Below, piece after piece: positions 1 through 53,559 of a stretch of 64,000 nt of DNA. Under the pieces are notes generated by a model. It saw nothing but the letters and a program-made list of their open reading frames with translations. It ran no database searches and had not been told where the DNA came from. Each line of letters starts with the position of its first letter. Within the stretch, counting starts at the first letter, position 1. The DNA is from a virus: the IMG/VR virus record IMGVR_UViG_3300027917_000039; one strand, 5' to 3'. The position numbers were made by a program, and so were the translations under genes.

Positions 1-83
1 CCAGGTTGATGTTGTCCGGCGGATCGGCGAACACCATCCTGTACCTATTGGTAGTATACTGTAGAAACTCGGCGAAGTCAACA

Positions 84-329
84 TTAACCAGTTCGATTCG
101 GCTCATCGGGAAGCACCTTCCTCACTACAAACCAGAACTCCGGAACCCACGTACCTTCCTCGAACTCGTCATCAGCCTCGATGAACGGCATACAGACTTG
201 TCCGACCGTGTTGCCAAACCCTTCAGCCTCTCGTGCCAGGGCTTTGAACACTGACATCAGCCCGTTCGCATCAGGCTGCTCTTCAATCCGGGGTATCGCT
301 GGCTGATGCAGCTTGATGTCGTCTTCCAT
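84..329 (-). CDS. hypothetical small acidic protein (start uncertain, alternative start at 257)
   Basis: Minus-strand ORF with stop at 84 and internal Met starts. Its 5' end overlaps the 3' end of the GNAT gene. Confidence 0.3.
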   Translation of the reverse strand: MEDDIKLHQPAIPRIEEQPDANGLMSVFKALAREAEGFGNTVGQVCMPFIEADDEFEEGTWVPEFWFVVRKVLPDEPNRTG

Positions 330-798
330 GTGACGTGATCCTCTCGAAGATGTACCAATCGTAATTGCGTCCGTACCGCCAACAACCTTCCTGAACACCT
401 ACCGCTTTGAAGTTGTTCTTCCACAGCCAGTGCTCTATGTTCCAGGGGTCTTCCTTGTCTTCGATCGTGTAGCTTGGAGCCAGCAGCCTGACGGCACCGA
501 AGCTATCCGCGTTTGCTTCCATGCAGACCTTGGTGATGATTCTTTTTCCAATCCCTGCCATTCGGAACTTTGGCATCACTCCGATACTGTCGACGGTGAC
601 GAAGTCGTTTCTTTGGTCGAAGGTGCATAGGGCGTACCCAACGAAACGTCCAGAAATTTTCGCAAGGTAGCCCTCTCGTTCTTTCTCCATGACATACGGC
701 TTCACCTCATCAGTCAGCATCGGGTACTCTTGGCAGGCTATCTCACCGTTCACGAGATGCCCTAAGTCTTTGAATAACCCTCGCTCAATCTTGATCAT
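283..798 (-). CDS. GNAT family N-acetyltransferase
   Basis: 171 aa with the acetyl-CoA binding motif RMAGIGKRIITKV (R/Q-x-x-G-x-G/A type). It lies in an operon with the sulfotransferase and nuclease. Confidence 0.6.
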   Translation of the reverse strand: MIKIERGLFKDLGHLVNGEIACQEYPMLTDEVKPYVMEKEREGYLAKISGRFVGYALCTFDQRNDFVTVDSIGVMPKFRMAGIGKRIITKVCMEANADSFGAVRLLAPSYTIEDKEDPWNIEHWLWKNNFKAVGVQEGCWRYGRNYDWYIFERITSHGRRHQAASASDTPD

Positions 799-1793
799 CC
801 TTTGTATTGCCTTTCCTGTAACGAAGCCCAGAAGTCCTCATCTTCGTACACCTCTGTCACTTCCATGTCGAGTACCTCACAACGAGCGTCGCTCGCTTCT
901 CGTGTGAGATCGTCGAAGACGTGCCCAGTTTGAAGCTGCGCCCAGCAATGCTGCAACCGTCCGAGCAGCGTGGTCTGCCACTCTTCACACAGACAGCATC
1001 GGTGCTGAGCGACCCGGATCAACGGGAAGCGTTCGACTTCGGGATTGGGCGAAGGCTTACAAGCCAACTGATCCAGCCCAACCACGACAGGCTCACCCAC
1101 CTCAACACCTGACAACCAGGAATAGATTGTCAACTGATCAGCCCATGATTTGTCAACATCGTGGATGAAGTGCTTGCCGACCTTATGCCCGTGGAAGTCG
1201 ATCTCTTCGTACTTCGGGTGAGGCTTCGGGTCGCCGCCGCCACGAGTGGGTTTCGCGCGATCAACTCCCCAGCAGTCGCGACAGGATTTGTAGAACTTCT
1301 TGGGCGATTGAGGATGCCGGGAACAAAAGCCCATGACCTTCCAGTCGTAGAGAACTTGCACGTTCCGGACATACCAAAGGTCAGGCTTGCCAACAACCGG
1401 GACTCCACAGATATTTCCCTCCAACTCGAACTCGAACTTCGGGGCTTCCTCGGATTGCTGCAACTCGGCGAGCAGTTCGTCGTAGCAGCCCCAGGTACGA
1501 TAGCAGTCGAAGGCATACTTGCCAGCGTCCCACGCCCACTGCCTGATTTCGTGGTTCTGCACTTGGTGCTCGAACAAGGTTTGCAAATCGTAGACGCCGT
1601 CACCATCGTTGCCGAACAGATGCTGATGCAAGTTGCATTTAACGAACGCATCGAACGCACTACCAACAGCCATCGCGTCAGATTGCGGCTCCCACTGCGG
1701 GCGTGCTTCGGACAGGTACTTCCGGTAGAACTCTTCCCGGTCCTTCTCCCAGATATGCAGGCTTGTCGTCGACAGTCTCTTGAGCGTTCTCAT
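795..1793 (-). CDS. PD-(D/E)xK nuclease, RecB/Cas4-like exonuclease with Cys cluster
   Basis: GKPDLWYV...VLYDWKV fits the D...(D/E)xK core. C-terminal cysteines (CRDCW, CCLCEE...C) suggest a Cas4-like Fe-S/Zn site. Start overlaps the GNAT stop (ATGA-type overlap). Confidence 0.5.
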   Translation of the reverse strand: MRTLKRLSTTSLHIWEKDREEFYRKYLSEARPQWEPQSDAMAVGSAFDAFVKCNLHQHLFGNDGDGVYDLQTLFEHQVQNHEIRQWAWDAGKYAFDCYRTWGCYDELLAELQQSEEAPKFEFELEGNICGVPVVGKPDLWYVRNVQVLYDWKVMGFCSRHPQSPKKFYKSCRDCWGVDRAKPTRGGGDPKPHPKYEEIDFHGHKVGKHFIHDVDKSWADQLTIYSWLSGVEVGEPVVVGLDQLACKPSPNPEVERFPLIRVAQHRCCLCEEWQTTLLGRLQHCWAQLQTGHVFDDLTREASDARCEVLDMEVTEVYEDEDFWASLQERQYKG

Positions 1794-2608
1794 TCAATTT
1801 CTCCAAGGATGTAAGAGCGAAAGTCGCGAACAGCCGCCACGTTTCGATGATCAGCTTGACGCTTGACCGTTGTCACAGGGAAAGACTTTCTTAGTGGTTT
1901 GCCAAAGAACCCCATCACTTCATTGTACAGGGGATGTTCAGGATTCTTGAAATCTTCATAAGCAGCCATCGTGTCGATGTACTGTTTCAAGTAGGTGCGA
2001 GCGAAATGATCGAACTTGCAAAGATTATTGATGGCGCTTCCGATGATTGCTCGATTCATGTTGTAGTTGTCGGAATTCTCTTCCTCGGTCGACCGGAAGC
2101 AGTCAGTTGTCACCGCTTTCACCATCGACACTGCTTGGGCGATCTTGTCGCGGCGATACAGGTAGATGATCCTCGCGAAGTCCATCGACTCGATACCCAG
2201 GTGAAAGTCCTGGTTCATGGCTATCAGTTGCCCGACGTGCCATTTTAGCATCCACACTCCAGTGTTTCGGGACGACTTGTTGAACACCCACTCGCAGTAT
2301 TTCTTCAGGTTGAAAAGACTGGCGCCCACCACCTGCTGCCATGCGACAAAGTATTCGTAGTTCAGCCATTCCTCTGCGATGCCAAGGGCGCCGGTCTCGT
2401 TCAGGGCTTCACAGAACAAGGTAGAGCCGCAGCGGGGAGTGCAGAGAATCAATCCAGCGGTCTGCACAGGGCGTTCGGAGTCGGGGCTGGCTGCCAGTCT
2501 CTCGAACAACTCAACGTGGGTGGGCTTGCACCGCGTTTTGATCTCGTACTCGTCATCGCTCACCTTGATGACGTAGTCCATTTCCTTGTCGTTGATGTCG
2601 TTGCTCAT
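1790..2608 (-). CDS. Stf0-like sulfotransferase (PAPS-dependent)
   Basis: LILCTPRCGSTLFCEALN matches the Stf0 5'-PSB motif C(T/A)(Q/P)R(S/C)GSTLLCE, and YLYRRDKIAQAVS matches the Stf0 3'-PB region. Start taken at MSNDIND, whose ATG overlaps the upstream gene stop (ATGA). Confidence 0.55.
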   Translation of the reverse strand: MSNDINDKEMDYVIKVSDDEYEIKTRCKPTHVELFERLAASPDSERPVQTAGLILCTPRCGSTLFCEALNETGALGIAEEWLNYEYFVAWQQVVGASLFNLKKYCEWVFNKSSRNTGVWMLKWHVGQLIAMNQDFHLGIESMDFARIIYLYRRDKIAQAVSMVKAVTTDCFRSTEEENSDNYNMNRAIIGSAINNLCKFDHFARTYLKQYIDTMAAYEDFKNPEHPLYNEVMGFFGKPLRKSFPVTTVKRQADHRNVAAVRDFRSYILGEIE

Positions 2609-2880
2609 ATCAATCCTCCAAGGAACGCCAGCGTGCAAGCCATTACCGCAGCACAGACCACACTGTAGGCGATGTGTAAGTACCGTAGCCACTCGGTGAC
2701 GATCCAGGTGCCGACCACCTTCGCACCCACCAGACTCCATACACCCCACTTCCACAGGATGAACTGAGCGACCGGGTTCAACTCATCGTTCACGGTCAGA
2801 AACTGGCAGCACCAGATGTCGACCGCCGTGGCGAGCCAGATGAAACCGATCAAATGGATGCGAACTATTGAATGTCTCAT
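2605..2880 (-). CDS. small integral membrane protein (2-3 TM)
   Basis: 91 aa, hydrophobic. First gene after the conserved promoter. ATG sits 5 nt downstream of the -10 hexamer. Confidence 0.5.
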   Translation of the reverse strand: MRHSIVRIHLIGFIWLATAVDIWCCQFLTVNDELNPVAQFILWKWGVWSLVGAKVVGTWIVTEWLRYLHIAYSVVCAAVMACTLAFLGGLI

Positions 2881-2885
2881 ACTAA

Positions 2886-2914
2886 AGTCTACCACACAAA
2901 CGAGTTCAGGTCAA
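2886..2914 (-). promoter_or_regulatory. phage early promoter copy 1: TTGACC-N17-TGGTAGACT (extended -10)
   Basis: Minus-strand read TTTCGCTTGACC-TGAACTCGTTTGTGTGG-TAGACT-TTAGT-ATG. One of 5 near-identical copies in the window. Confidence 0.55.
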
Positions 2915-2920
2915 GCGAAA

Positions 2921-3220
2921 TCACAGGCAAAAGTCGGAATTTGCCTCACCTTCATCCAGCCCTTCCTGGTAGCCTTCAGCATAGCCGTCGTCGAAGCCAC
3001 GATCGTAATCGCCGGACAGATCGGACTCGGTTTCCTCCACACCAGCGTCAAAGCCTTCGTCCCACGCGCGGGTACGTTCGGCTTCAGCGTGATCGAGGCA
3101 TAGATCGTACAAGCTGTCGACCAAAGTCGACAATCGCTTCGGTGTACACGGGGTGCTGCCGAACGCCGCCTTGCACAGTCGCGATACCTTGTCTTTCAGG
3201 TCGGGTGTTGAATCGGACAT
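2921..3220 (-). CDS. hypothetical acidic protein (D/E/G-rich C-terminus)
   Basis: ORF with protein-like composition. Overlaps the 3' end of the upstream paralog gene by about 137 nt, so one of the two models may be wrong. Confidence 0.35.
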   Translation of the reverse strand: MSDSTPDLKDKVSRLCKAAFGSTPCTPKRLSTLVDSLYDLCLDHAEAERTRAWDEGFDAGVEETESDLSGDYDRGFDDGYAEGYQEGLDEGEANSDFCL

Positions 3221-3458
3221 TTCGTTTTCCCTTATCAAGTTCTCGTTGGATGATCTCAGTAATCTCGTAACCCAGCCACGCATCGCGCGGAAACTTTGTA
3301 AGCCACTTTTGTGCAGCGTCCATCGTAGCGAATGGCTTTTCTAGCGGTTCGTCGCCGTCCCTGGCTGGCGTATCCTTGAAATACTCCACGGTCGCCAGAA
3401 AGGTTCCATCGCCCTCCAGCGTGATGCGCTTGTCTTTGACAACTTTGTCATGCCGCAT
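3084..3458 (-). CDS. hypothetical protein, DGTFL-motif family (paralog 1)
   Basis: N-terminus KRITLEGDGTFLATVEYFKD resembles the neighbouring ORF (SIHLQEDGTFLLVIRKDD). The C-terminal third looks low-quality. Confidence 0.4.
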   Translation of the reverse strand: MRHDKVVKDKRITLEGDGTFLATVEYFKDTPARDGDEPLEKPFATMDAAQKWLTKFPRDAWLGYEITEIIQRELDKGKRNVRFNTRPERQGIATVQGGVRQHPVYTEAIVDFGRQLVRSMPRSR

Positions 3459-3676
3459 CAGACGCCTTTCGTAGTTGGATTGAACACAGACCGTGGGGTC
3501 TCACCAAAGTATCCATCGTCGTTCGGAAGCATTGCCGCCGTCTCTTGCGCTTCGACAAACGTCTTCATTGGGATGTTCAGCACCTCGTCATCCTTTCGGA
3601 TGACCAGCAAGAAGGTTCCATCTTCTTGCAGGTGGATGCTCTTGTCGAAGGCGACAGGCTTACACTCGGCGGTCAT
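3458..3676 (-). CDS. hypothetical protein, DGTFL-motif family (paralog 2)
   Basis: 81-aa ORF. Stop overlaps the start of paralog 1 (ATGA). Start chosen at MTAECKP to limit overlap with the ligase. Confidence 0.45.
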   Translation of the reverse strand: MTAECKPVAFDKSIHLQEDGTFLLVIRKDDEVLNIPMKTFVEAQETAAMLPNDDGYFGETPRSVFNPTTKGV

Positions 3677-4751
3677 ATCGGGCTTCCTTGGGGATGCCAT
3701 CATCGGACAACTCCCGGTAGCGGAACTCGATCGTGTCCCCTACCTTGAAATACTTGCCCTGGAAATCGCTTGGCATATCCACGCCTGGATTCTCGTAGGC
3801 GTAACTCTGCATCGCGTCCGTTGCGAACAGTCTTTCCTCGTTGGTGAAGCCTGCCAACTCCAGCCGCTTCCCCTTGTACTCGGTGACGACCGCGCCGATC
3901 AACCCACGCAGCTTCGAGCCCTTGTCAGTCTCGCGACCGGAGACGAAGCCGGTGACGACGCTTTGATCGTCGGTGAAGGGCTTCATCTTCAGGAGCGTGC
4001 CGACCCGCTTGGGCGTCCAGATCGAGCCCGGCTTGCGGAGCATGATGCCCTCGCCGCCCTCATTCAGAACCACGTCCATGAACGCGCCAAGCTGATCCTC
4101 TGCCTCGCTGGCATCGTCGGACAGCCTGTGGTGCTGATGCAGGTAGCACAAGTCACCACCGATGAGACTGCCTTGCAGGTAGTTGATCTCTTGCTCGAAG
4201 GTCAACCCACCAGGGACGTGGACGAACTCTTCCAGCACTCCAGAGTCCGCGCGGCTCTGCACGAACTTCATGATCTCCATTTGGTTGACGTTCAGATGGA
4301 AGTTGGTGTTCTTGATCTCGCCCGGAGCGAAGACTTGTGTCGGGGTGGGTGCCCCGAAGCACGCGAACTGCACGTCTCGCCAGCGGTCGTCTTCGGGCAC
4401 GTCCTTGGCCACAATGGAGCGGAGAGTCTGGAAATTCCCGCGACCGGCAAAGAGTTCGCCGTCCAGAAACATGGCGGGCAGTTGGTTCAGCCACCAGTCG
4501 GGAGCGATGATCGGGTTGCCGTAGCGGCTCCACAGACCAGAAGCAACGGGCTTGATCTTCGCCTTGCGGTCGCCGGTCTTCGGGTCGATCAGGTTTGCCC
4601 ACGGCACGGTGTCTGTCGGGAGCCCACGGCTGACGCCGCCGTCCCAGAAGCACCTCGTGCCGTCCAGCTTTTCACTCACCCACATGCCCGCCGGGCTGTC
4701 TTTGCCCGGCTTGAACGTCTTCGCCAGTTGAAGGAACTCACGCCTCGCCAT
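3660..4751 (-). CDS. lig: ATP-dependent DNA ligase
   Basis: Motif I KLDGTR (adenylation lysine), DGELF motif III, EGIMLRKPGS motif IV, LLKMK motif V. Start taken at MARREFLQ. Confidence 0.8.
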   Translation of the reverse strand: MARREFLQLAKTFKPGKDSPAGMWVSEKLDGTRCFWDGGVSRGLPTDTVPWANLIDPKTGDRKAKIKPVASGLWSRYGNPIIAPDWWLNQLPAMFLDGELFAGRGNFQTLRSIVAKDVPEDDRWRDVQFACFGAPTPTQVFAPGEIKNTNFHLNVNQMEIMKFVQSRADSGVLEEFVHVPGGLTFEQEINYLQGSLIGGDLCYLHQHHRLSDDASEAEDQLGAFMDVVLNEGGEGIMLRKPGSIWTPKRVGTLLKMKPFTDDQSVVTGFVSGRETDKGSKLRGLIGAVVTEYKGKRLELAGFTNEERLFATDAMQSYAYENPGVDMPSDFQGKYFKVGDTIEFRYRELSDDGIPKEARYDRRV

Positions 4752-5127
4752 CTTCGGTCTCCGGTTGTACAAGTGCATGGATCAGAATTTGGTGGCGATC
4801 AGGGTTCGTCCGCCTCACGACTCGGATCGTCACAGGGATGCGACCCTTTTCGCACAGGAAGACGAGTTCTCTCTTCGAGAAACGGTCGAGCGGGATCGCC
4901 GCCGTCCGTACGTTTCCCAGTTTGTTGATCTTCTCCGCCAACGCCTTCACCATCGGACGCAGGTAGAGGGTCTCAATCTCTTCCCCGGTCATCTGTGCGA
5001 TGTCGTTAGACGGGAACGACACAGTGACCGACTGGAGGTGGTCGATGTTGGTCGGTCGACCTTCTACCACCTCTACAGTTAAGTGTACATCCAAAAGCCG
5101 CGAAAGGGAAGGAACTTCTCGAAACAT
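4738..5127 (-). CDS. hypothetical protein
   Basis: 129-aa minus ORF between the ligase and the membrane coiled-coil gene. Confidence 0.4.
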   Translation of the reverse strand: MFREVPSLSRLLDVHLTVEVVEGRPTNIDHLQSVTVSFPSNDIAQMTGEEIETLYLRPMVKALAEKINKLGNVRTAAIPLDRFSKRELVFLCEKGRIPVTIRVVRRTNPDRHQILIHALVQPETEDGEA

Positions 5128-5139
5128 TTCTGTCCTTTC

Positions 5140-5667
5140 TTAGAGCAGGAACGGCATAATCGTTGTTATGACTCTTGCCCGATCCTTCAGTTCAATCAGT
5201 TGATCGAGAAAGTTGTCGGTGGCGCTCTTCAGTGCCTCTTTCTTTTGTCCGGTCTCGATCAATTCCAACGCACGTTCCAATGTGTCGACACGCCACGTCA
5301 GAGACTCATTCTCGTCAATCAACTCGTTGATCTGTTCAACCTGCTCTTCCAGCCGGTCAACCGCTTCGTCGAGCGAGTTCTTCAGGGAGCGATTCTCTTC
5401 CTCAATTATGCTGTACGCTTGCACCACCTTCCTCTCTCGCTCCACCAGCAGCCCGTTCTCAACCGCGAGCATCTTGGTAGCTTCCATTGAGATGTAGGAA
5501 TAGTCCAGGGCTTGCAGAACCTGACGATTCAACTCTTGGACGTGCTCTATGGCGTTCACCCGGCGGTTCCACCTTTCGGCGTTCATCTCAGTTTGCCCGA
5601 CGATGCTGATCAACCCAACACAGAGACCGATCAAGAGCAAGCAAATGAAACCCAGCAATCCACGCAT
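5140..5667 (-). CDS. membrane-anchored coiled-coil protein
   Basis: N-terminal TM (LLGFICLLLIGLCVGLISIV) followed by heptad-rich, E/L-rich sequence. Sits immediately downstream of the sigma factor gene. Confidence 0.45.
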   Translation of the reverse strand: MRGLLGFICLLLIGLCVGLISIVGQTEMNAERWNRRVNAIEHVQELNRQVLQALDYSYISMEATKMLAVENGLLVERERKVVQAYSIIEEENRSLKNSLDEAVDRLEEQVEQINELIDENESLTWRVDTLERALELIETGQKKEALKSATDNFLDQLIELKDRARVITTIMPFLL

Positions 5668-5670
5668 CGT

Positions 5671-6351
5671 TCACCTCGTCAAATCTAAATACTGTTGATA
5701 GAGTCTTTGCTTTCTGCGATGCACCGTGGCGACTCCAATACCAAGGTCATCTGCGAGTTCCTGATAGCCTCTTCCCCAGTTGGCGGGGTCCATCAGTGCG
5801 ATGTCGATCTCGTCTTCCGGTTGAATCTTCGAGAACGCATCGAGTATGTCGCGAACAGCTTCATCGCCAACGTCTTCCGGCATCGTCTGTTCACTGTATT
5901 CGTTTGTCTCGGTGGTTTTATACACGGGCTCTTTATCGTCTCTTATCCTCTGCAACTGAATCGTGTGAGAGGGAGCCATCACGCTGCGATTCTTGTTGAG
6001 CATTTTCTCGATGCTCCACTGCGCACGCGACGTTGCCAGCTTCAAGATACCCCGCTCGCGAAACTTTTCATCTGGGATAGCAGCACAGAGAGCAGTTATC
6101 GCGAGCAAGCCTTCCGCCACCATGTCGTCAATGTACGGCTCTAGCCCGCCGAAGTTCCCAAGATAACGCCCGACCAACAAACTCACACAGCCGCGAAGAG
6201 AGCAGATCAAGTCGTCAGGCTTCTCACCAGCAATGACACACACAGCCTTTTCGTTCAGGTCTTCCTCGCTGAAGCTGATCGCCCCATCGAGCAACTCGTG
6301 ATCGAAGCGTGCGGTGTTTGTGTGGTAGTGCTTCAGGTGGATGTAGTTCAT
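5671..6351 (-). CDS. sigma-70 family RNA polymerase sigma factor
   Basis: Region 2-like DDMVAEGLLAITALCAA...ATSRAQWSIEK and a region 4 HTH YQELADDLGIGVATVHRRKQRLYQQY. Confidence 0.6.
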   Translation of the reverse strand: MNYIHLKHYHTNTARFDHELLDGAISFSEEDLNEKAVCVIAGEKPDDLICSLRGCVSLLVGRYLGNFGGLEPYIDDMVAEGLLAITALCAAIPDEKFRERGILKLATSRAQWSIEKMLNKNRSVMAPSHTIQLQRIRDDKEPVYKTTETNEYSEQTMPEDVGDEAVRDILDAFSKIQPEDEIDIALMDPANWGRGYQELADDLGIGVATVHRRKQRLYQQYLDLTR

Positions 6352-6827
6352 TTCGTGCTCACTACCAGCCAGAATCGGCGAGGCTCAAAGTTGAATTTGT
6401 CTGCCACGTTCATTGAATAGCAGTAGCCGCGAGGGTCGTACACGACGTTGCCATCCCATGCAACCATGTGCCCGCGCCCGTTGGTCGTGTTGATCCCTTC
6501 GATCAGTCCGCGACCCCAAGCAAGCTGCCCAAGAAACTTTGCTTGTGGTTCCTTCCACACGCTGACAGGTTTGCAGCTTTCGTGCGGAGAGGCTTTCGGA
6601 TCGAGAGGGAACGGGACGAACGCGGTATGGCAATGCCGAAAGGCTAGGTCGCAAATCTCTTCCATGCTTGGCACTCGCGGTACATCTTTCCATTCTCCCT
6701 CGAACGGTAGGTTTTCCTCAAACTTCCAATGCTTGAAAATCGAATACACCGCAGCAGGTTCGAGGTTCAACACCATCGCGAGCGACGCATACACACAGCC
6801 GTTGGTCTCTTGCAGTTTCAGTTTCAT
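6348..6827 (-). CDS. papain-like cysteine peptidase (C39-like)
   Basis: QETNGCVYASLAMVL gives the catalytic Cys context of C39 peptidases. GHMVAWDGNVVYDP provides the His and Asp/Asn. Confidence 0.5.
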   Translation of the reverse strand: MKLKLQETNGCVYASLAMVLNLEPAAVYSIFKHWKFEENLPFEGEWKDVPRVPSMEEICDLAFRHCHTAFVPFPLDPKASPHESCKPVSVWKEPQAKFLGQLAWGRGLIEGINTTNGRGHMVAWDGNVVYDPRGYCYSMNVADKFNFEPRRFWLVVSTK

Positions 6828-7501
6828 TGTCCTGTCTCCATGTGTCCGTAGTAGCCCTCAGCCTTGCACACGTCGCAGGTGTACGAACTGTCTCGCTCGT
6901 GGCAGGTACAGCGGGGCGTCATCTGCCCTATCAGGGTTGAGACCACGTTGTCGTAAGGATGCCGTGGAAGCTGGCAATGACCCGCCCGGTTCCAGGGGCG
7001 AGGGATCAGGAACGCCTGCCCGCCAGCCTCGCGAAACTCATCCACGTTCTTGTCTCGGTCGTCGATTAGGATCGCGCCCGGACCGGCGAACACACTCTTG
7101 TCCGCACCGATGAAGAACTTCCTGATCATGTGTCGGAAGTTGGATTTGATCCAATCGAACTTTCCAGCCACACACTCGCTACTGAGGGTCGGGCTAGTGG
7201 CGAAGTAGACATCGCCGACCGATTCCAAGACTTGCAGAAACTGAGGGGCGAGTGGGTAGCACCGGAGGCTTCGCCAGAACTCGTACCCCAGACCGTCCCA
7301 GAAGGTGGTAGCCGAGATAGCTTCCAGCCCTCTATTCTGTCGAACCAAGTTGGTAGCACCAAGAACATCCCAGCCGAATCCGATCGGATAGAACTGCTCG
7401 CCTTCGATCTCGGCTTCATGGAACGCCATCGCGGGCATCACGAAGTCGGTAATGACACCGTCAAGGTCAACAAATATCTTCGGCTTCGTCTTCAAACTCA
7501 T
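6824..7501 (-). CDS. HAD-superfamily 5'(3')-deoxyribonucleotidase-like phosphatase
   Basis: IFVDLDGVITDF (DxDxV/T motif I), ATSPT (motif II), K motif and ILIDDRD (motif IV). The C-terminus carries a Cys/His cluster CTCHERDSSYTCDVC. Confidence 0.55.
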   Translation of the reverse strand: MSLKTKPKIFVDLDGVITDFVMPAMAFHEAEIEGEQFYPIGFGWDVLGATNLVRQNRGLEAISATTFWDGLGYEFWRSLRCYPLAPQFLQVLESVGDVYFATSPTLSSECVAGKFDWIKSNFRHMIRKFFIGADKSVFAGPGAILIDDRDKNVDEFREAGGQAFLIPRPWNRAGHCQLPRHPYDNVVSTLIGQMTPRCTCHERDSSYTCDVCKAEGYYGHMETGQ

Positions 7502-7889
7502 CGAATAAGTCCTGTAGGTCTTGTTCTAGTTCGAGTTGCTCTTCGTCGTATCTCGGCTTCCAGTAGTCCCGCCAGTTCGGTGGAGCGAACAACTTGTCAT
7601 AATCGTCGTCCGACCAGCCGGTGATGATCCAGATGCCCGTCCCGGCGGCTTCCCACTTTGGCCACTTTATCCGTTGAGCACGGGTGAACTCGTAGTCCAA
7701 CGGGTTCTTCAAATCCACCCACCGCTGTCCATGCTTCGGGTGCATGATGTAAATGTCAGGGATTCCCTTCTGAAGTTGGTTGCCGATCATCCTTTCGACA
7801 GTCCAACCCCTCTGTATCAAGTACACAATGAACTTCCGCTGGATGATGGCTTCCGGTCCATTCTTCGAGCGGAATTTCTTCGGGTCCAT
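7467..7889 (-). CDS. VRR-NUC domain nuclease
   Basis: EAIIQRKFIVYLIQRGW...GIPDIYIMH...WVDLKNP...TRAQR fits the VRR-NUC PD-(D/E)xK pattern. Confidence 0.6.
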   Translation of the reverse strand: MDPKKFRSKNGPEAIIQRKFIVYLIQRGWTVERMIGNQLQKGIPDIYIMHPKHGQRWVDLKNPLDYEFTRAQRIKWPKWEAAGTGIWIITGWSDDDYDKLFAPPNWRDYWKPRYDEEQLELEQDLQDLFDEFEDEAEDIC

Positions 7890-8311
7890 CAGACGCCCTC
7901 GTCCATCTCGACCTGCGACGGGTCACAACACTGGTCGTGCCCTGCTGGCTCGGCTGGCGTGTGGGGCACACCGAAATCGGATTGATAGTAATCGCCGATG
8001 ACTCCGAGAACTGACAGCGGCTTCTGTGCGTATTCCTTCTGGAAGCACGTCATGTCGCCGTTCTTCAGAATCGCAGTGTCTTCGTACGGTCCGAGCAGAC
8101 GACGCTGAATCTCGTCAGCCGCGTCCCTTAAAACCGCCACGCACCCACTGAGGGAATGATAGCTGTCCTTGTTCAGCGTCTCCAGAACGATCCTGGTGAT
8201 CGTGTAGTTCACGTCGCCCTGCGTCGCGTCGATCTGGCTGAGCCGTTTCACCAGCCCGTCGATGATCGTGTCCAGTGCCATTCGGTTCGCTATCTTGATA
8301 TAAGGCATCGA
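7889..8311 (-). CDS. hypothetical protein
   Basis: Start set at MPYIKIA, preceded by GGAGAA 7 nt upstream. No recognisable motif. Confidence 0.45.
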   Translation of the reverse strand, partial: SMPYIKIANRMALDTIIDGLVKRLSQIDATQGDVNYTITRIVLETLNKDSYHSLSGCVAVLRDAADEIQRRLLGPYEDTAILKNGDMTCFQKEYAQKPLSVLGVIGDYYQSDFGVPHTPAEPAGHDQCCDPSQVEMDEGV

Positions 8312-9829: not shown

Positions 9830-9936
9830 TAGGATCTCCAGTGTGCGTGTGTGTTTAGTTATCAGGAGTCAGCGGGTCTGCAAACACCGCCTCGCCGCAT
9901 TGCAGTACGACCGGGCTGACTTGCCCGCTCCCGAAG

Positions 9937-10008
9937 CTGTGGAGGCTGGACTCGAACCAGCAACAGTCCGGTTAACAGCCGGATACTCTACCATTGAGTT
10001 ACTCCACA
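9937..10008 (-). tRNA. tRNA-Asn (anticodon GTT)
   Basis: Hand-folded cloverleaf: acceptor TGTGGAG/CTCCACA, D-arm ACTC-AATGGTA-GAGT, anticodon arm TCCGG-CTGTTAA-CCGGA, T-arm GCTGG-TTCGAGT-CCAGC, discriminator G, U8 A14 G18G19 U33 A37 present. No encoded CCA. Confidence 0.85.
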
Positions 10009-10351: not shown

Positions 10352-10380
10352 AGTCTACCCCACAACCAGGGTCAGGTCAA
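10352..10380 (-). promoter_or_regulatory. phage early promoter copy 2: TTGACC-N17-GGGTAGACT
   Basis: Minus-strand read CCTTGACC-TGACCCTGGTTGTGGGG-TAGACT-TAATAGTGAAAGGGTTGACG-ATG. Confidence 0.5.
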
Positions 10381-15324: not shown

Positions 15325-15972
15325 CACAGTTTCTCCGAGATAGTACACGTATGGCATCACGAAGCGGTAGCGATGCCGCGTGATGATGCGCTCGAACTGA
15401 GGGTCCAACCCTGGCCACTTCACTTCGTTGTCCGTATCAGGGTCGTAGAACAGAACGAAATCGTGACGGGGTTCGAGATGGTAGTCGAACGTGAACTCAT
15501 CGCCGTCGTCCAGCGTCTTGACGAACGGAAACAGCATCCCGTGCATCGGACCGTTGATGATCGGGTAGAAGACGTTGCCGTCCATCGCCATCAGCATGTC
15601 GACAGTTATCCTGGTTCCCTGACGAATTGCGTCGTACTGTGCAGTGAAGCGAGCCGACAGGTTGTCGTAGGTATAAAGTTTCTGAACGGCACCCCACACA
15701 GCATAGATCGGCAGTTCCCGACACTGCATGATCGGAGTCTCGTTCAGTTGCTGTGCCATCGCAATCATCGAGGGCATTAGGTGCATGTCCACAATCTCTT
15801 CCAACGACGGCAATTCAACATTGTCCGCTATCATGCACGAGCAGTAGAAATGGTTGTGGAACGGTTTTCGGGAGTCCCATTGCTCCGGGTCCGCCGGTCG
15901 AATCTCACTTGTCACCTCGTTACATAGCGAGGCGAACCCCTCCAAGAAGGCTAATTTCAAAGTGTCGATCAT
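15304..15972 (-). CDS. hypothetical protein
   Basis: 222-aa ORF with no recognised motif. Confidence 0.45.
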   Translation of the reverse strand: MIDTLKLAFLEGFASLCNEVTSEIRPADPEQWDSRKPFHNHFYCSCMIADNVELPSLEEIVDMHLMPSMIAMAQQLNETPIMQCRELPIYAVWGAVQKLYTYDNLSARFTAQYDAIRQGTRITVDMLMAMDGNVFYPIINGPMHGMLFPFVKTLDDGDEFTFDYHLEPRHDFVLFYDPDTDNEVKWPGLDPQFERIITRHRYRFVMPYVYYLGETVLTMSDL

Positions 15973-16702
15973 TGAAGAATCTCCTGGTTCGAGTGCGTAA
16001 ATGGTAACGACCAGACAGGTCGTACGGCGTGGGAACGATCACGTCGGCTGGCTCTGGTCTCAGCAGCCTTTTGTCCACCGCAATCTTCAGAACAATCGTC
16101 ACAGGTGTGAAGTAAGTGCTCCCTTCTACCGATCCCCATAGTGTACCTGCGTACCACCCACTGGCGTCGAGGATCGGTCCGCCGGAGTCTCCGCTCCGGG
16201 CTTGCGCGCCATCTACTGAGTTCCACTTGTAGCCGCCACTACCCCAACGCTTCGGTGAGAGCGTGCCCCAAGACTGTTTGAAGATTCCGTATCCGTAGCC
16301 GTTCACTGACAACTCGGCTTTTGACTCCCGCTCGAACCCCATGCGACTGAACACGAGAGGCTTGGTTGTGCGTGGGTCGTTCTCCAGCTTAATGAATGCC
16401 AAGTCATGCTCTTTGTCGGTGTGGACGACATCGCCTTTGATCACTTCCCACGACGGGAACAGAATCTCCACAGTGCGGCTCTGGCGATCCTTCACAACAT
16501 GGGCGGCAGTCACGATCAGTTGCTGCCCAAGGTACGCGCCGCTGCCTGCGCTTCGGGCTCCCTCTCCGCCTTTGTCTTTCACATGCACACGCACACACGC
16601 CGCCGGAGGGACCGACAGGTGGGGCTGCTCAATCGGCTCGCTCGCTATCGACGGCAGGCACAACACGAATCCCAGGATTGTGGCGGTCAACAGACTCCGC
16701 AT
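15920..16702 (-). CDS. secreted trypsin-like (S1) serine protease
   Basis: Signal peptide MRSLLTATILGFVLCLPSIASEP. Catalytic triad contexts TAAHVV (His), DLAFIKL (Asp), GDSGGPI (Ser). Confidence 0.65.
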   Translation of the reverse strand: MRSLLTATILGFVLCLPSIASEPIEQPHLSVPPAACVRVHVKDKGGEGARSAGSGAYLGQQLIVTAAHVVKDRQSRTVEILFPSWEVIKGDVVHTDKEHDLAFIKLENDPRTTKPLVFSRMGFERESKAELSVNGYGYGIFKQSWGTLSPKRWGSGGYKWNSVDGAQARSGDSGGPILDASGWYAGTLWGSVEGSTYFTPVTIVLKIAVDKRLLRPEPADVIVPTPYDLSGRYHLRTRTRRFFNDRHFEISLLGGVRLAM

Positions 16703-18774: not shown

Positions 18775-20646
18775 TTAGTCCTCTCCAATGCTCACGGTGT
18801 TGTAGAATGGATGGTTCTCGATGATATAGTCGATAGCATCCTTGAAGTACGTGCCCTCCAGCGTGAAGAGCCTTTCCTTGAGATTGATGTCGGCGAGGTG
18901 TGCTCTCTGCCGTTTCAACTCATCAGGGTTCGTAATCAACTCGACCGACTTGGCAATCAATGCCTGCGGGTCTTCAAAGTTGTTGTACGACATATCAACG
19001 CGGTCGTTGAGGTACATTCCCGCGCGATTGTAGAAGCGATCACCCACCAGCGTCAGGAATGGAATGCCCATCCACAGGGACTCCACTAGGACGTTGTAGC
19101 AACCGAACGGGAATGAGTTGAGAGCAAAGTCATGCTTCTCAGCCTCCCGCATGTAGTCGACATACTCCCACTGCGAATGAACGTACGCATTGGGAAGCAG
19201 GCGGGTCACTTCTCGAATGAACGGAGGCAACGCAGCGTAGCGGTTCAGTCCGGGCGACCCGAAGAGATGAAACTCGTGGGTCGTTTCGGGGTTGACTTGC
19301 AACGCACGCTTGTTGATCTCAGCCAACATGGTGAGCAGCGTGTGGTTGTACTTGTCCGGTCCCCAGACACAGTTGATCCGGACGACGCCGTCGTCAACGT
19401 AGTTGTGCTGTCGCTCGACACTTGGCCACGCAGGCTCTTGTGCCAAGCCGGGGATGAGCACCCGTGTCTCTGAGTAGGCGGCATCGGCATCCTTCTCCAC
19501 CTGTCCGCAGATGAAGTAGTCAATCTCGTTGCCGTCACCCGTCGTGTCTGGGTGCCCGTATCCCACGACTTGTATCGGAGCCATGCGAAAGTTCGACATC
19601 CAGATCGACTCGTCCGACATTCCGATGTCGGGGAAGTAGACCAGTTGGTAGTCGTTCTTCAGCACTTCGTCTGGAATCCGCAACTGCCCTTCACGGGTGA
19701 AGTAGGCGTGGTGAACTTCATCGAAGTAATCTGTCACCATCGTTGACGGCACCAAGTCTGGCGGGTTTGTCCAGATCAGGGTCAACTTGTAGTGCTCGCG
19801 AAGCTGTTCGAGCAACGGACCCTGCGACTTGTACACCGCGTGGTTGCGATGCCACCGCTCGGTGACGATCGCGATCGACTTCGGGTTGGGGTTATTCTCG
19901 AACGGCGGTGCAGTGCCCTTGGATTTGATCCCCTTGTTGATGATGCTCTTTACTCGCCGGACGGCGTTCTGATTGTGGTACGTGCATCCAAAGTACAGAC
20001 CGGACAGGCTCTGATGCGGCGGGACAAACCGCTCGTCCATCAGTTCCAAGTGCCGATAGAAATTCTTCTGGATGTTGAACGTCGGTGACGACAGACCGAG
20101 CATGTAGCTCATGTACCAGAGCGAAGCGAGAGCGGGATCGCAGTCGAACAGTTTCTTCTGGTCGATTTGAATCTCGCAACGCGGGTTGAGCAGTGACATC
20201 ATCTTGCCGACGTTGTTCTCGATGCCAAGCGAGGCGTCGAGTGCGGCATCGGTAGTCCGCATCGAACTGGACGCGAAGATGCTCTGTAAGACGTGCCCCA
20301 ACTGGATCAACTGAATTGCCGATTTTCCAACCGGGTAGAAATCTACGCGCGAGACAGCCATCGAATACGTGAAGCAAAAGTCATTCAGCTTCACGATCGC
20401 AGAGTTGCCGAATCGCATGTAGTGGTGCATCTCGAAGTAATGCAAGAAGTGAACGAAGTCATCCCACAGAGTGACATCGAGGTCCGCGATCTTGCGCATC
20501 GCCTTCCTGACATCGAGGGTCGGGATGTCTTGCTGCGGGTCTTTTGGCCACGCAACACAACACCCGTCGACCTTCTTGGACTTCACTACCTGCCGCTTGC
20601 GGCGGTTACGAGCTAACTCTTTCTCACGCTTCTTCGTTCTTGCCAA
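18775..20646 (-). CDS. GT41-family (OGT-like) glycosyltransferase
   Basis: RMAPIQVVGYGHPDTTGDGNEIDYFICGQVE...YSETRVLIP aligns with the OGT catalytic-region signature RPAPIQ..LGYPGTSG..MDYIITD...YSEKL. Has a basic N-terminal tail. Confidence 0.6.
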   Translation of the reverse strand: MARTKKREKELARNRRKRQVVKSKKVDGCCVAWPKDPQQDIPTLDVRKAMRKIADLDVTLWDDFVHFLHYFEMHHYMRFGNSAIVKLNDFCFTYSMAVSRVDFYPVGKSAIQLIQLGHVLQSIFASSSMRTTDAALDASLGIENNVGKMMSLLNPRCEIQIDQKKLFDCDPALASLWYMSYMLGLSSPTFNIQKNFYRHLELMDERFVPPHQSLSGLYFGCTYHNQNAVRRVKSIINKGIKSKGTAPPFENNPNPKSIAIVTERWHRNHAVYKSQGPLLEQLREHYKLTLIWTNPPDLVPSTMVTDYFDEVHHAYFTREGQLRIPDEVLKNDYQLVYFPDIGMSDESIWMSNFRMAPIQVVGYGHPDTTGDGNEIDYFICGQVEKDADAAYSETRVLIPGLAQEPAWPSVERQHNYVDDGVVRINCVWGPDKYNHTLLTMLAEINKRALQVNPETTHEFHLFGSPGLNRYAALPPFIREVTRLLPNAYVHSQWEYVDYMREAEKHDFALNSFPFGCYNVLVESLWMGIPFLTLVGDRFYNRAGMYLNDRVDMSYNNFEDPQALIAKSVELITNPDELKRQRAHLADINLKERLFTLEGTYFKDAIDYIIENHPFYNTVSIGED

Positions 20647-21808
20647 GAGGCACCTCCACGAGTTTGCCGAACTCGAATTTCAAGAGACCTTTGCATTCAA
20701 TCCCCAGCTTGATGATTTCGTCTCGGATGTCGAGCGATCGCCAGGACGTGGTGCATATGATATAGTCAACGGGGAATTTCTTCAACGCTGTCGGAGAGAC
20801 CATCGGAATCTTCGTGCCGGGCACGCAGAATCCCCATTTCTCTTCGTGGCTGTCAACCACGAGAGTGGTATCCGGCAGCTTGAACTTGTTGATGAACATG
20901 GCGGACTTTCCACCGCCGCCCCACAGCGCGACCCTGTCGGTCGTGTTCACCAACCAGCTACGCACTTCGTCGATCTTGGCTTGAGCCCGCTTGTACTTGA
21001 ACAGGATTTGATCAACCGTCAAACCCTTGGTCCGCTTGGGCTCCAGCTTCGCCATCGCGACGATCACTTCACCACCATACGTGGTGGCTGCGTGAGAGAA
21101 CTCAATCCCGCACGCGCGGAACAGCTTCATCATGCTGAGCACAGTGAAGTGTTGTGGGTGCTCGTACGTCCAGTCTTCGATGCGGCATTTCTTCAATGCC
21201 TCTTGACAGCACGGGACTTCGATGAGCAGGATTGTGTCTTGGGCTCGCTTCTCAGCCATCCGGACAATCGGCTCGATGAACTCGCGCGGATTCTCCATGT
21301 GCTCCAGAAGGTGCCGCATGATGATCACCAACTTACCGCCGTCCAGCGGGATGTGCTGCTTCGGGTCGAAGTGCTCGCGGTAGTATTGGATGCCCAACTC
21401 TTCCGCTCGCTCGACTGCCTCGCACGGGTCGATCGCGATCTTGATCGCGTCGGTGTTGATCCGGTTGAGGAACTCGCAGTCGCCCGCACCGACTTCGATG
21501 ATCAATTCAACGTCTTCGATTTCTTCGACTTGCTTGACCGTTACCTCAACGTGCCTCTGCCAGCCGCTCCCACTATTGTACATGCGACAGCCAGCGGCTG
21601 CGTACGATACGTGGTTCGGATTGAAGTCGATGTTGTGGACGTGCCCGCAGTTTCGGCAGATCGCCAATCGGATTCGGTGGCGTTCCAACGATGCAGACTG
21701 CAACGGGTCGCGCTGCAATGCCACAAGAGACATCGGCTGGCTGCCCATGTCGAACAACACTTCTTGGTCTGTCGATTGACAGGCAGGGCAACATTGGATA
21801 TAACTCAT
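20624..21808 (-). CDS. SAM-dependent C-methyltransferase, TcaB9/TylCIII-like (Zn-ribbon + class I MTase + C-terminal domain)
   Basis: N-terminal CPAC...CRNC zinc ribbon, motif I LIIEVGAGDCEFL, about 390 aa with a three-domain architecture typical of sugar C-methyltransferases. Confidence 0.55.
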   Translation of the reverse strand: MSYIQCCPACQSTDQEVLFDMGSQPMSLVALQRDPLQSASLERHRIRLAICRNCGHVHNIDFNPNHVSYAAAGCRMYNSGSGWQRHVEVTVKQVEEIEDVELIIEVGAGDCEFLNRINTDAIKIAIDPCEAVERAEELGIQYYREHFDPKQHIPLDGGKLVIIMRHLLEHMENPREFIEPIVRMAEKRAQDTILLIEVPCCQEALKKCRIEDWTYEHPQHFTVLSMMKLFRACGIEFSHAATTYGGEVIVAMAKLEPKRTKGLTVDQILFKYKRAQAKIDEVRSWLVNTTDRVALWGGGGKSAMFINKFKLPDTTLVVDSHEEKWGFCVPGTKIPMVSPTALKKFPVDYIICTTSWRSLDIRDEIIKLGIECKGLLKFEFGKLVEVPLGKNEEA

Positions 21809-27004: not shown

Positions 27005-27016
27005 TGCTCTACATCT

Positions 27017-27025
27017 ATTGTAGCA
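27017..27025 (-). promoter_or_regulatory. extended -10 promoter TGCTACAAT (leftward) within the inverted repeat AAAGTTGCTACAATAG
   Basis: Minus-strand read AAAGTTGCTACAATAGATGTAGAGCA-ATG (ParB-like start). Leader only about 6 nt. Confidence 0.4.
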
Positions 27026-27075
27026 ACTTTGATCCGTATTTTCCGCGCGTTCTCGGTTTTCTCGGCACTTTCTCG

Positions 27076-49756: not shown

Positions 49757-49765
49757 CCTTCACCT

Positions 49766-49972: not shown

Positions 49973-49974
49973 GT

Positions 49975-53544: not shown

Positions 53545-53559
53545 GCGAAGTTCCTCCAG

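Follow-up and report, generated by a model that had tools for sequence, protein, structure and literature searches.

We analysed a 64,000-nucleotide stretch of DNA from a virus (IMG/VR record IMGVR_UViG_3300027917_000039; hereafter the window), in which a promoter and the four genes behind it are laid out on the minus strand as follows.

2878..2914, minus strand: sigma-70-type promoter with an extended -10, leaderless, located by a consensus scan (TTGACC-N13-TGTGGTAGACT-TTAGT-ATG)
2605..2880, minus strand: small hydrophobic protein of 91 aa, the first gene of the unit (ORF, hydropathy profile)
1790..2608, minus strand: predicted PAPS-dependent sulfotransferase of the Stf0 family (PF09037), 272 aa (Pfam, fold, invariant residues)
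795..1793, minus strand: PD-(D/E)xK nuclease, Cas4/RecB/RecE-like, 332 aa (invariant motifs, fold matches)
283..798, minus strand: GNAT acetyltransferase, 171 aa (PF00583, E 5e-8; PHROG acetyltransferase families match)

The sulfotransferase gene lies in an open reading frame of 1790-2755, and its start was assigned to the ATG at 2608-2606, which is preceded by a GGAGGA Shine-Dalgarno sequence and matches the N-termini of 30 homologs. The product matched Pfam PF09037 at E 2.1e-14 with 54.1 bits (cutoff 22), covering profile positions 3-242 of 244, and a precomputed PF09037 match is present in 78 of 79 homologs. An AlphaFold2 model of the product (pLDDT 93.5, pTM 0.90) was compared with the PDB by Foldseek; the chains of 1TEX (Stf0) came out on top (E 1e-7, TM 0.57-0.67), followed by CurM ST, SULTs and TPSTs. 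A profile of the phage clade also matched 1TEX in the PDB at E 7.5e-12. The significant profile search and the nearest solved fold therefore confirm the assignment to the Stf0 family that had been made in an earlier, sequence-only reading of this DNA.

Both PAPS-binding signatures named in that reading are present, and their key residues are conserved in homologs. The first, CTPRCGSTLFCE (residues 56-67, nt 2408-2443), contains the 5'-phosphosulfate-binding (PSB) loop PRCGST at residues 58-63 (P58-R59-C60-G61-S62-T63), and the second, YRRDKIAQAVS (residues 151-161, nt 2126-2158), is the 3'-phosphate-binding (3'PB) motif. In the alignment of clade and near-clade sequences, R59, G61 and S62 were kept in 195-196 of the 197 ungapped ones, and R152 and S161 were invariant in all 203; together with Q158 and E80, these residues form the invariant or near-invariant set. 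E80, likewise found in 203/203 sequences, is matched in the alignment with 1TEX by the Glu of PQEFF, residue 36 in native numbering (the 20-residue offset was verified). Glu36 is reportedly described as the catalytic base of Stf0 in the 2004 structure paper, and by this alignment E80 is the putative catalytic base of the phage protein. Strong conservation is also seen beyond the donor site, at E80-W81-x-N83, H124, Q127, Y217-E218 and an N-terminal helix, the last being part of a clade-specific N-terminal extension of ~50 aa. Judged from these residues and from the modelled fold, the product is very probably an active PF09037 sulfotransferase. The enzyme family is known, and this addition to it stands out by its unusual carrier.

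A trehalose-type specificity, which the earlier reading had suggested, is not supported. The NCBIfam equivalog NF047724 scored 44.5 bits, its cutoff being 400, and aligned only with residues 147-264; orthology to trehalose 2-sulfotransferase was rejected on this ground, and the phage protein, going by its sequence, should not be given that name. Mycobacterial Stf0 (trehalose 2-sulfotransferase, PDB 1TEX), which sulfates trehalose, nevertheless shares with it the Pfam family PF09037, the fold, a PSB loop with Arg, not Lys (PRCGST in the phage protein, QRSGST in 1TEX), and the conserved Glu of the EEW/QEF segment. The replacement of the PSB-loop Lys by Arg is a hallmark of Stf0 (PMC11625862), and Stf0 R143 and S152, the residues named for 3'PB (PMC10638397), have R152 and S161 of the phage protein as their aligned counterparts. 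In contrast, identity between the two proteins is ~20% with a TM of ~0.6, the phage protein has the extra conserved N-terminal helix, and its acceptor-side C-terminal half aligns poorly with 1TEX. Furthermore, unlike mycobacterial Stf0, the gene is carried by a phage and has no sulfolipid genes nearby. A second point of comparison is LpsS of Sinorhizobium meliloti, an LPS-modifying sulfotransferase annotated as Stf0 family (PMC12445080), whose kinship with the phage protein is one of annotation only and not of sequence comparison. LpsS is cytoplasmic and modifies an envelope glycoconjugate, which is the type of activity proposed here for the phage protein, but its gene is chromosomal and under symbiosis regulators, not phage-borne.

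The promoter reads TTGACC-N17-TAGACT-TTAGT-ATG at 2914-2878, and its -10 element stops 5 nt before the ATG of the membrane-protein gene. Four near-identical copies are present in the window (at 24292, 17402, 10380 and 2914), where 0.17 would be expected from shuffled sequence, and all four end exactly at an ORF start codon. The motif is also found directly upstream of the membrane gene or of Stf0 in relatives (L001, L007, L009, L011, L013, L017, L019, L020, L023, L024 and L025). With its copies in the window and its recurrence in relatives, the conserved leaderless promoter proposed from the letters alone holds up. The three ATGA overlaps described there are present as well: 2605-2608 joins the stop of the membrane gene to the Stf0 start, 1790-1793 the Stf0 stop to the start of the 332-aa gene, and 795-798 the stop of the latter to the GNAT start. 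They are not distinctive, because overlaps are common in contig L004 (identical to the window), where 26 of 38 gene junctions overlap, 9 of these by 4 nt. The overlapping chain behind the promoter comprises at least 14 genes, mostly of DNA and nucleotide metabolism, and the unit contains ligase, nuclease, N6/N4 methyltransferase, RNR, dCMP deaminase, MazG and NT5C.

The identities claimed for the three neighbours of Stf0 were all upheld. The upstream 91-aa product has three hydrophobic segments by hydropathy (approximately residues 4-30, 37-65 and 65-91), giving two to three predicted transmembrane segments. It had no match in Pfam (up to E 10), PHROG or NCBIfam, and a supposed likeness to DUF5658 was dropped because neither Pfam at E 10 nor NCBIfam returned a match. 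No more than 12 homologs turned up, of which those examined belong to this phage group. In the downstream nuclease, D138, D150-W151-K152 and Q220...Y224 are invariant among 39 homologs, so that the PD-(D/E)xK and QxxxY motifs are both present, in agreement with the fold matches of its AlphaFold2 model (pLDDT 92) to the 3L0A exonuclease, Cas4 SSO0001, ACE1, RecE and the AdnA nuclease domain. The window protein itself matched no Pfam family even at E 10 and no PHROG family; PF12705 is precomputed in a few of its homologs. Conserved cysteines are found at C157, C171, C245, C266, C283 and C305 (32-38 of 39 sequences). The Fe-S cluster of Cas4 involves four cysteines, an N-terminal Cys and a C-terminal CxxC...C, and the spacing in the phage nuclease is not the canonical one. 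"Cas4-like" is used here as a statement on the modelled fold, not on membership. For the 171-aa product, the PF00583 match bears out the GNAT claimed downstream; a relative in the PDB was not found.

To place Stf0 among its relatives, loci extending 10 kb from an anchor gene were compared. Stf0 was present in 12 of the 13 nuclease-anchored loci with nuclease identity of at least 50% and in none of the 38 with lower identity, so that 39 of 51 informative loci have the nuclease without Stf0. The nuclease family extends to at least 571 metagenome loci, mostly directly after DNA ligase and without Stf0. The gene serves replication/recombination, is widespread in the phage lineage and is a neighbour of Stf0, not its partner. 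GNAT, too, lies downstream of the nuclease in loci that have no Stf0 (L026, L031, L034, L035, L047, L060 and L064). All four combinations of presence and absence of the membrane gene and Stf0 were seen among relatives, the membrane gene occurring without Stf0 in L024 and L122, and Stf0 without an upstream membrane gene in L009-L011, L013-L019 and L025. The absence of Stf0 is by loss in L021, L024, L026 and L122. Stf0 also diverges faster than its neighbours, with 35-59% identity among relatives against 51-83% for the nuclease.

These patterns bear on the proposal that the four genes form a coordinated unit, which in its full form would make membrane protein, Stf0, nuclease and GNAT one pathway with a single target. 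The genes are indeed contiguous and joined by ATGA overlaps, the promoter at 2914 is common to all, and every relative that has Stf0 keeps the order Stf0-nuclease-GNAT. However, most of the lineage has the nuclease and GNAT but lacks Stf0, the membrane gene and Stf0 are each found alone, PhoH separates Stf0 from the nuclease in L001 and L003, the normal pairing of the nuclease is with DNA ligase, and overlaps are usual in a chain that runs to 14 genes. The presence/absence pattern across relatives largely refutes such a pathway, and we regard it as very improbable; the coordinated unit of the sequence-only reading is not retained. Stf0 is instead an optional accessory gene in the promoter-proximal slot of a long replication-module operon, and a single gain in one sub-lineage appears to account for its presence. 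In the corrected annotation the protein is an Stf0-family enzyme but no trehalose sulfotransferase, and the nuclease and GNAT are taken out of the hypothesis.

The window comes from a tailed phage (the earlier reading had spoken of a phage), and every context examined for the Stf0 clade lay in a single group of uncultured tailed phages. The first search gave 79 representatives of the clade (clustered at 90% identity), more distant members coming in addition, and in the leaf order of a neighbour-joining tree the phage sequences stand together and the cellular ones apart. The rarity of such genes in phages, also claimed earlier, agrees with tblastn searches of 50,697 GenBank phage records, which found neither Stf0 nor its Kordiimonas relative, and with the lack of any PHROG family match for the protein. 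A DNA search with window positions 1-8000 against GenBank phages likewise returned none, and an IMG/VR scan with the Stf0 alignment returned one locus only, a partial one. Sulfotransferases are annotated in Synechococcus phages S-SCSM1 and ACG-2014f, in Xanthomonas phage FoX4 and in giant viruses. These share with phage Stf0 a viral carrier and the sulfotransferase fold, but only 9-15% identity by structural alignment; that tblastn in GenBank phages missed them suggests that they belong to more distant families. To our knowledge, the sulfotransferases annotated in other viruses are functionally uncharacterised, and we know of no phage-encoded sulfotransferase with a characterised function.

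The nearest cellular relatives of the clade are a Thalassotalea sp. protein (WP_353516966.1) and the metagenomic proteins P0210 and P0218, which had profile scores of 216-240 bits. These three are single-domain proteins of ~250 aa and have their invariant residues in common with the phage clade. Of the four nearest cellular relatives whose surroundings were examined, three belong to NDP-sugar/glycan clusters (L094, L123 and L124) and one, from Kordiimonas (L093), does not. All three clusters have RmlA/B-like genes, L123 and L124 also DegT and WbqC, and methyltransferase and acetyltransferase genes adjoin as well; an HMW1C-like glycosyltransferase lies beside the relatives in L094 and L123, with a faint GT41 match only in L124. 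In contrast, no such glycan-cluster gene adjoins phage Stf0, whose neighbours are DNA and nucleotide metabolism genes. Co-acquisition of the GNAT with Stf0 from a glycan cluster was considered and rejected, as the phage GNAT had no specific BLASTP similarity to the GNAT of the Thalassotalea cluster (E 0.24). Fusion proteins also occur among Stf0 relatives, the partner being a GT2 domain, an ABC-transporter ATPase or additional sulfotransferase domains. From sequence relationships of this kind, we consider the acceptor of the phage enzyme somewhat likely to be a carbohydrate.

In the explanation we prefer, phage Stf0 serves as an accessory carbohydrate O-sulfotransferase that depends on PAPS and has a precursor of a host glycan or glycolipid as its substrate. 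The whole chain, with its carbohydrate or envelope target, is put forward tentatively, at slightly less than an even chance, and modification of the host envelope as the purpose of the gene is a shade more doubtful still. Stf0 would be transcribed by host RNA polymerase as part of the leaderless replication-module operon, and the enzyme, presumably soluble and cytoplasmic, would draw on host-made PAPS during infection. Genes for PAPS synthesis, glycosyltransferases and an integrase were not found among the ~45 phage ORFs scanned, many structural-region ORFs being unannotated. PAPS would be held by the Arg of the PRxGST loop and by the Arg and Ser of the 3'-phosphate motif, and E80 would take the proton from a hydroxyl group on a cytoplasmic, sugar-containing acceptor, which would then receive the sulfate. 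The likeliest acceptor may be a precursor of a glycan or glycolipid of the host envelope, or a unit derived from an NDP-sugar. Since the enzyme is cytoplasmic in this scheme, an effect on the envelope requires host machinery to export the sulfated product. The upstream membrane protein may help Stf0 without being required, and the nuclease and GNAT would act independently.

A sulfated cell surface might, for example, block superinfection or re-adsorption, as with seroconverting phage enzymes. Such enzymes, including the O-antigen acetyltransferase Oac and the Gtr glucosylation systems, are encoded by accessory genes that alter host surface glycans; they are membrane proteins of temperate phages and are expressed in lysogens. 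The resemblance is a functional analogy only, as chemistry and folds differ and Stf0 is a predicted soluble protein encoded in a replication-module operon. If the acceptor is a surface glycan, sulfation would join acetylation and glucosylation as a means by which phages remodel the host surface, and phages would be linked to sulfated-glycan turnover in sediments.

Other roles were weighed against host-envelope modification. Sulfation could serve counter-defence or detoxification by inactivating a host immune signal, an anti-phage small molecule or a host protein. The early, promoter-proximal position, the optional and fast-evolving character of the gene and a variable slot also taken by PhoH would be in line with this, such features being typical, we infer, of genes in phage-host conflict; with a family context of glycan biosynthesis and no precedent known to us for sulfation as anti-defence chemistry, we hold it to be improbable. 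Only marginally less probable is an action on nucleic acid or nucleotides, in which Stf0 would sulfate a hydroxyl group, on a modified base or else on a nucleotide or nucleotide-sugar destined for phage DNA modification, the sulfate acting as a blocking group or, by analogy with the phosphorylation of 5-hmdU, as a leaving group. Stf0 is embedded among DNA and nucleotide genes (ligase, methyltransferase, RNR, dCMP deaminase, MazG, NT5C), in a phage that has an NDP-hexose C-methyltransferase-like gene and a MazZ-like dNTP diphosphohydrolase domain as well, and sulfotransferases have the P-loop kinase fold in common with kinases, which appear low in the fold lists. However, Stf0 is patchy among close relatives with no co-varying partner gene found within the 10-kb loci, the scanned ORFs yielded no hydroxymethylase or DNA glycosyltransferase, and the family members that are characterised or have informative context all point to carbohydrates. 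Sulfation might also be a chemistry of conflict in these phages instead of a decoration of the envelope, with a sulfate ester placed on a signalling nucleotide of a defence system, on an NDP-sugar or on a DNA base that is hydroxylated or modified; it seems comparably improbable that sulfate blocks such a nucleotide-derived target or activates it as a leaving group, and we know of no described precedent for phage conflict chemistry of this type.

There is a slim chance that the substrate of the enzyme is not a host molecule but a phage product, such as the glycans of virion proteins. The HMW1C-type protein glycosyltransferases beside two of the cellular relatives (L094 and L123; L124 has the faint GT41 match only) and the NDP-sugar C-methyltransferase-like gene of the phage are consistent with this, but the scanned phage ORFs include no glycosyltransferase and Stf0 sits in the replication module, not in the late structural module. 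The least probable role, and a very remote one, is that of a metabolic drain, in which the consumption of PAPS and production of PAP would perturb host sulfur assimilation or PAP-sensitive RNases, the acceptor being incidental. The highest conservation in the protein, that of the donor-binding residues, would fit, but E80-W81-x-N83, H124, Q127, Y217-E218 and the N-terminal helix are also conserved, and this conservation outside the donor site argues for a specific acceptor.

The host is uncultured. A scan of GTDB genomes with patterns of the Stf0 clade gave no confirmed relative, so that Stf0 itself provides neither a prophage example nor a host assignment. The nuclease was more informative: of 26 nuclease-bearing GTDB loci, 21 are from Planctomycetota, and several of these lie inside Mb-scale contigs or chromosomes with the synteny exonuclease-PolA-NT5C-ligase-nuclease kept. 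Relatives of the phage group are therefore integrated in Planctomycetota chromosomes as prophages. None of these integrated relatives has Stf0, which leaves a role in lysogenic conversion without an example. Planctomycetota have many sulfatases and close ties to sulfated polysaccharides. The phage Stf0 clade offers intact catalytic residues and a defined promoter-proximal accessory slot together with a plausible host phylum. The "Planctomycetota MAG" records of the Stf0 protein are phage contigs.

The Stf0 gene was called as an ORF at 1790-2755, but its true start is the ATG at 2608-2606, in agreement with the N-termini of 30 homologs. Every gene in this region lies on the minus strand:

2605-2880, minus strand: membrane protein, 91 aa, three hydrophobic segments
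1790-2608, minus strand: Stf0 gene, 272-aa product, start ATG (2608-2606) behind a GGAGGA Shine-Dalgarno
2408-2443, minus strand: CTPRCGSTLFCE, residues 56-67 of the Stf0 protein
2126-2158, minus strand: YRRDKIAQAVS, residues 151-161 of the Stf0 protein
795-1793, minus strand: nuclease ORF, 332 aa, PD-(D/E)xK residues and fold
283-798, minus strand: GNAT, 171 aa, a generic member of PF00583

The two strings that the sequence-only reading had quoted as PAPS signatures were thus found in the Stf0 protein, and the translational ATGA overlaps it claimed were present at 3/3 junctions (membrane protein stop/Stf0 start, Stf0 stop/nuclease start, and nuclease/GNAT).

The proposed family membership was borne out by a profile search. 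The protein matched Pfam PF09037 (Stf0 sulphotransferase) almost from end to end (profile positions 3-242 of 244; E 2.1e-14; 54.1 bits, cutoff 22), and the same domain was found in 78/79 homologs. The AlphaFold2 model, built on 31 homologs (pLDDT 93.5, pTM 0.90), had as its top PDB matches the chains of 1TEX, the structure of mycobacterial Stf0 (E 1e-7, TM 0.57-0.67, ~20% identity), followed by other sulfotransferases only, and a profile of the phage clade matched solely 1TEX in the PDB (E 7.5e-12). P58, R59, G61, S62 and T63, as well as Y149, R152, K155, Q158 and S161, were invariant across the 31-sequence alignment. When the alignment was extended with the nearest cellular relatives, R59 was present in 196/197 ungapped sequences, and E80, R152, Q158 and S161 in 203/203. 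Phage E80 aligned with native Glu36 of Stf0, reportedly the proposed general base. The phmmer alignment to 1TEX, read with the published numbering of the Stf0 3'-phosphate-binding residues (R143, V151, S152 and W154; PMC10638397), implies a 20-residue tag offset, so that phage R152 and S161 correspond to R143 and S152. A 5'-phosphosulfate-binding loop in which Arg replaces the usual Lys is a peculiarity of Stf0 (PMC11625862). With a significant family match and the key PAPS-binding residues kept in homologs, the assignment as a sulfotransferase stands, and the enzyme is very probably active. 1TEX is M. smegmatis Stf0 with trehalose, whose fold the phage protein has in common despite the low identity (~20%). 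Trehalose 2-sulfotransferase proper was ruled out, because the phage protein scored 44.5 bits against an NCBIfam equivalog cutoff of 400.

The rarity of the family in phages was also supported, as tblastn with the Stf0 protein and with a cellular relative gave no match in 50,697 GenBank phages. A few phages (Synechococcus phages S-SCSM1 and ACG-2014f, Xanthomonas phage FoX4) and giant viruses have proteins annotated with a sulfotransferase fold, but these have only 9-15% identity to the Stf0 protein of the window. No paper that describes a sulfotransferase encoded by a phage, and none on phages of Planctomycetota, turned up in the literature searches; among viral genes with high expression, one brine-pool virome preprint names a sulfotransferase. 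The phage Stf0 is a new member of an established enzyme family, unusual in its carrier, and does not represent a new type of system.

Upstream of the membrane protein gene lies TTGACC-N17-TAGACT, which has an extended -10 (TGTGG) and stops 5 nt short of the ATG at 2880. Four instances of TTGACy-N13-TGTGGTAGACTTTAG(T)-ATG/GTG are present in the window, against 0.17 expected from shuffles, and every copy ends exactly at a start codon:

24292-24255, minus strand: promoter copy at the helicase start codon
17402-17366, minus strand: promoter copy at the start codon of a 106-aa ORF
10380-10344, minus strand: promoter copy at the start codon of a 62-aa ORF
2914-2878, minus strand: promoter copy at the membrane protein start codon

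In relatives with a membrane gene, the same element lies just 5' of it; in those that have Stf0 alone, it lies just 5' of Stf0. The leaderless promoter noted earlier, a sigma-70-like one, is therefore real and conserved, and Stf0 stands at the head of a transcription unit. The exact coincidence with start codons points to leaderless mRNAs and to a replication module split into ~7-kb units. A single tRNA-Asn (GTT; 9936-10008, minus strand) lies just downstream of the copy at 10380 and its 62-aa ORF.

The same reading had proposed a coordinated four-gene operon of membrane protein, sulfotransferase, nuclease and GNAT, and this did not hold. In L004, a contig identical to the window, 14 overlapping or abutting genes follow the promoter in a chain that includes a DNA N6/N4 methyltransferase, a class II RNR and a dCMP deaminase. 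Gene overlaps are ordinary in this locus (26/38 junctions, with 4-nt overlaps in 9 of those 26). A metagenome scan anchored on the nuclease confirmed 571 loci. In the 80 that were retained, tblastn served to locate the ligase, membrane protein, Stf0, nuclease and GNAT. Stf0 was present in 12 of the 51 loci that extend 1.3 kb or more upstream of the nuclease, namely in 12/13 with a nuclease of at least 50% identity and in 0/38 below 50%; the nuclease has by far the wider distribution. In most loci, which lack Stf0, the DNA ligase directly precedes the nuclease, and GNAT is still found 3' of the nuclease in Stf0-less L026, L031, L034, L035, L047, L060 and L064. Close relatives showed all four combinations of membrane protein and Stf0.

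Membrane protein and Stf0 in the window and in numbered loci of its relatives
Membrane protein and Stf0: window, L001, L003, L007, L020, L022, L023, L028, L030, L032, L121
Stf0 without membrane protein: L009-L011, L013-L019, L025
Membrane protein without Stf0: L024, L122
Neither: L021, L026

In two close relatives Stf0 and the nuclease are separated by an inserted gene for a PhoH-like ATPase (L001, 10783-11478; L003, 10810-11508), which marks the slot as a hotspot for accessory genes. Stf0 diverges faster than its neighbours, with 35-59% identity among relatives where the ligase keeps 65-80% and the nuclease 51-83%. The locus is a variable, promoter-proximal accessory slot before conserved replication/recombination genes, not a dedicated pathway.

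The membrane protein has 12 homologs only and no family, and the 332-aa nuclease matched neither Pfam nor PHROG. D138, D150-W-K152 and Q220...Y224 were invariant in a 39-sequence nuclease alignment, and its confident model (pLDDT 92) matched the folds of the 3L0A exonuclease, Cas4 SSO0001, Cas4-family ACE1, RecE and the AdnA nuclease domain. "Cas4-like PD-(D/E)xK nuclease" is a fair description of the modelled fold, but the conserved cysteines are spaced differently from those of canonical Cas4.

The window belongs to a tailed phage encoding a tape-measure protein, P22-type coat protein, gpA-type terminase, family-A DNA polymerase, helicase, primase and ATP-dependent ligase, and positions 1-8000 had no nucleotide match among GenBank phages. 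Nuclease-bearing GTDB loci were mostly from Planctomycetota (21/26; Thermoguttaceae, Pirellulales, Planctomicrobium, Aureliella), several within Mb-scale contigs or complete chromosomes. Such integrated relatives are L099 (Thermoguttaceae chromosome OY762224.2), L104, L106, L119, L100 and L102 (Planctomicrobium sp. SH661 chromosome, matching the nuclease alone). All except L102 keep the order exonuclease-PolA-NT5C-ligase-nuclease-RNase T, and this common synteny suggests that these loci are probably prophages of the same lineage, which would give the host phylum of an otherwise uncultured phage lineage. No Stf0 was found in the Planctomycetota nuclease loci of GTDB. In NCBI, the name [quoted passage not shown] is attached to contigs of 11-13 kb that show this phage synteny; two of them, L007 and L008 (JGI Ga0452215_030156 and Ga0452209_024513), carry NT5C, ligase, membrane protein, Stf0, nuclease, GNAT and methyltransferase, and represent phage DNA placed in MAGs by binning.

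When 1.84 billion cluster representatives were searched with the family profile, 5,456 proteins matched at E <=1e-3 and 116 at E <=1e-30. As judged from leaf order in a neighbour-joining tree (203 sequences), the phage sequences fall together, and with them the homologs P0200, P0204 and P0206, which come from contigs as long as phage loci. The nearest cellular relatives are single-domain proteins of ~250 aa (Thalassotalea, Kordiimonas, a Desulfovibrionaceae MAG and other contigs). Three of the four with readable context lie in glycan clusters (L094, L123 and L124), all with RmlA- and RmlB-like genes; L123 and L124 add a DegT aminotransferase, WbqC, and methyl- and acetyltransferases, L123 a second sulfotransferase, and L094 and L123 an HMW1C-like glycosyltransferase, for which L124 shows only a faint GT41 match. 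The fourth, from Kordiimonas, lies outside a glycan cluster. In multi-domain cellular relatives the Stf0 domain is fused to GT2, an ABC-transporter ATPase or further sulfotransferase domains, which suggests dedicated machinery for polysulfated glycans:

P0296 (1332 aa): ABC-transporter ATPase and three sulfotransferase domains
P0220 (749 aa): triple Stf0 domains
P0300 (850 aa): Stf0 and DUF6065
P0306 (524 aa): GT2 and Stf0

One family member by annotation, LpsS of S. meliloti, is described as a sulfotransferase for LPS (PMC12445080).

The donor site and fold of the family are intact in this accessory gene behind a host-type promoter, and the family's contexts are carbohydrate-related. From here we infer a biology that goes beyond the solid annotation, as a hypothesis sharpened by the presence/absence analysis. 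Host PAPS would serve as sulfate donor, since no PAPS-synthesis gene was seen in ~45 scanned phage ORFs, and the reaction would take place in the cytoplasm, at a hydroxyl group on a molecule that contains sugar. The most plausible acceptor is a precursor of glycans or glycolipids in the host envelope. Sulfation would then change the surface of the infected cell, for example excluding superinfecting phages or avoiding re-adsorption. We consider a carbohydrate acceptor reasonably likely; envelope modification as the purpose is more tentative.

Sulfation aimed at nucleotides or DNA would agree with the genomic neighbourhood of the gene but disagrees with both its patchy distribution and the family context, and we regard it as improbable. 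A role in counter-defence or detoxification and sulfation of a phage product are each similarly improbable, and a drain on PAPS is highly improbable.

Several other features of the genome were observed. A 394-aa protein (20624-21808, minus strand) has the zinc-binding and C-terminal domains of NDP-hexose C-methyltransferases (Pfam Methyltransf_13/14/23), and its sole PDB relative is the D-mycarose 3-C-methyltransferase 4RV9 (E 2e-13). Such a gene is unusual for a phage replication module; it is located between the helicase and an SbcCD-like pair, where the related prophages L108 and L114 apparently have no insert. At 30261-30896 (plus strand) there is the N-terminal domain of a MazZ-type dATP/dGTP diphosphohydrolase (PF18909, E 7e-26), followed by an RNase T-like exonuclease gene. 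MazZ-type domains occur in 2-aminoadenine (Z-genome) phages; the scanned ORFs of the window included none that resembled PurZ. The non-structural half also encodes a trypsin-like serine protease (15920-16702), a protein with a ParB N-terminal domain (26072-27124) and an SPFH/Band-7 membrane-scaffold protein (31668-32312), all on the minus strand. GC content is ~0.49-0.50 at 48001-54000 versus ~0.55 elsewhere in the window, and this stretch takes in a pair of large ORFs (619 and 569 aa; 49975-53544) that matched neither Pfam nor PHROG and are possibly recently exchanged tail-fibre or receptor-binding genes.
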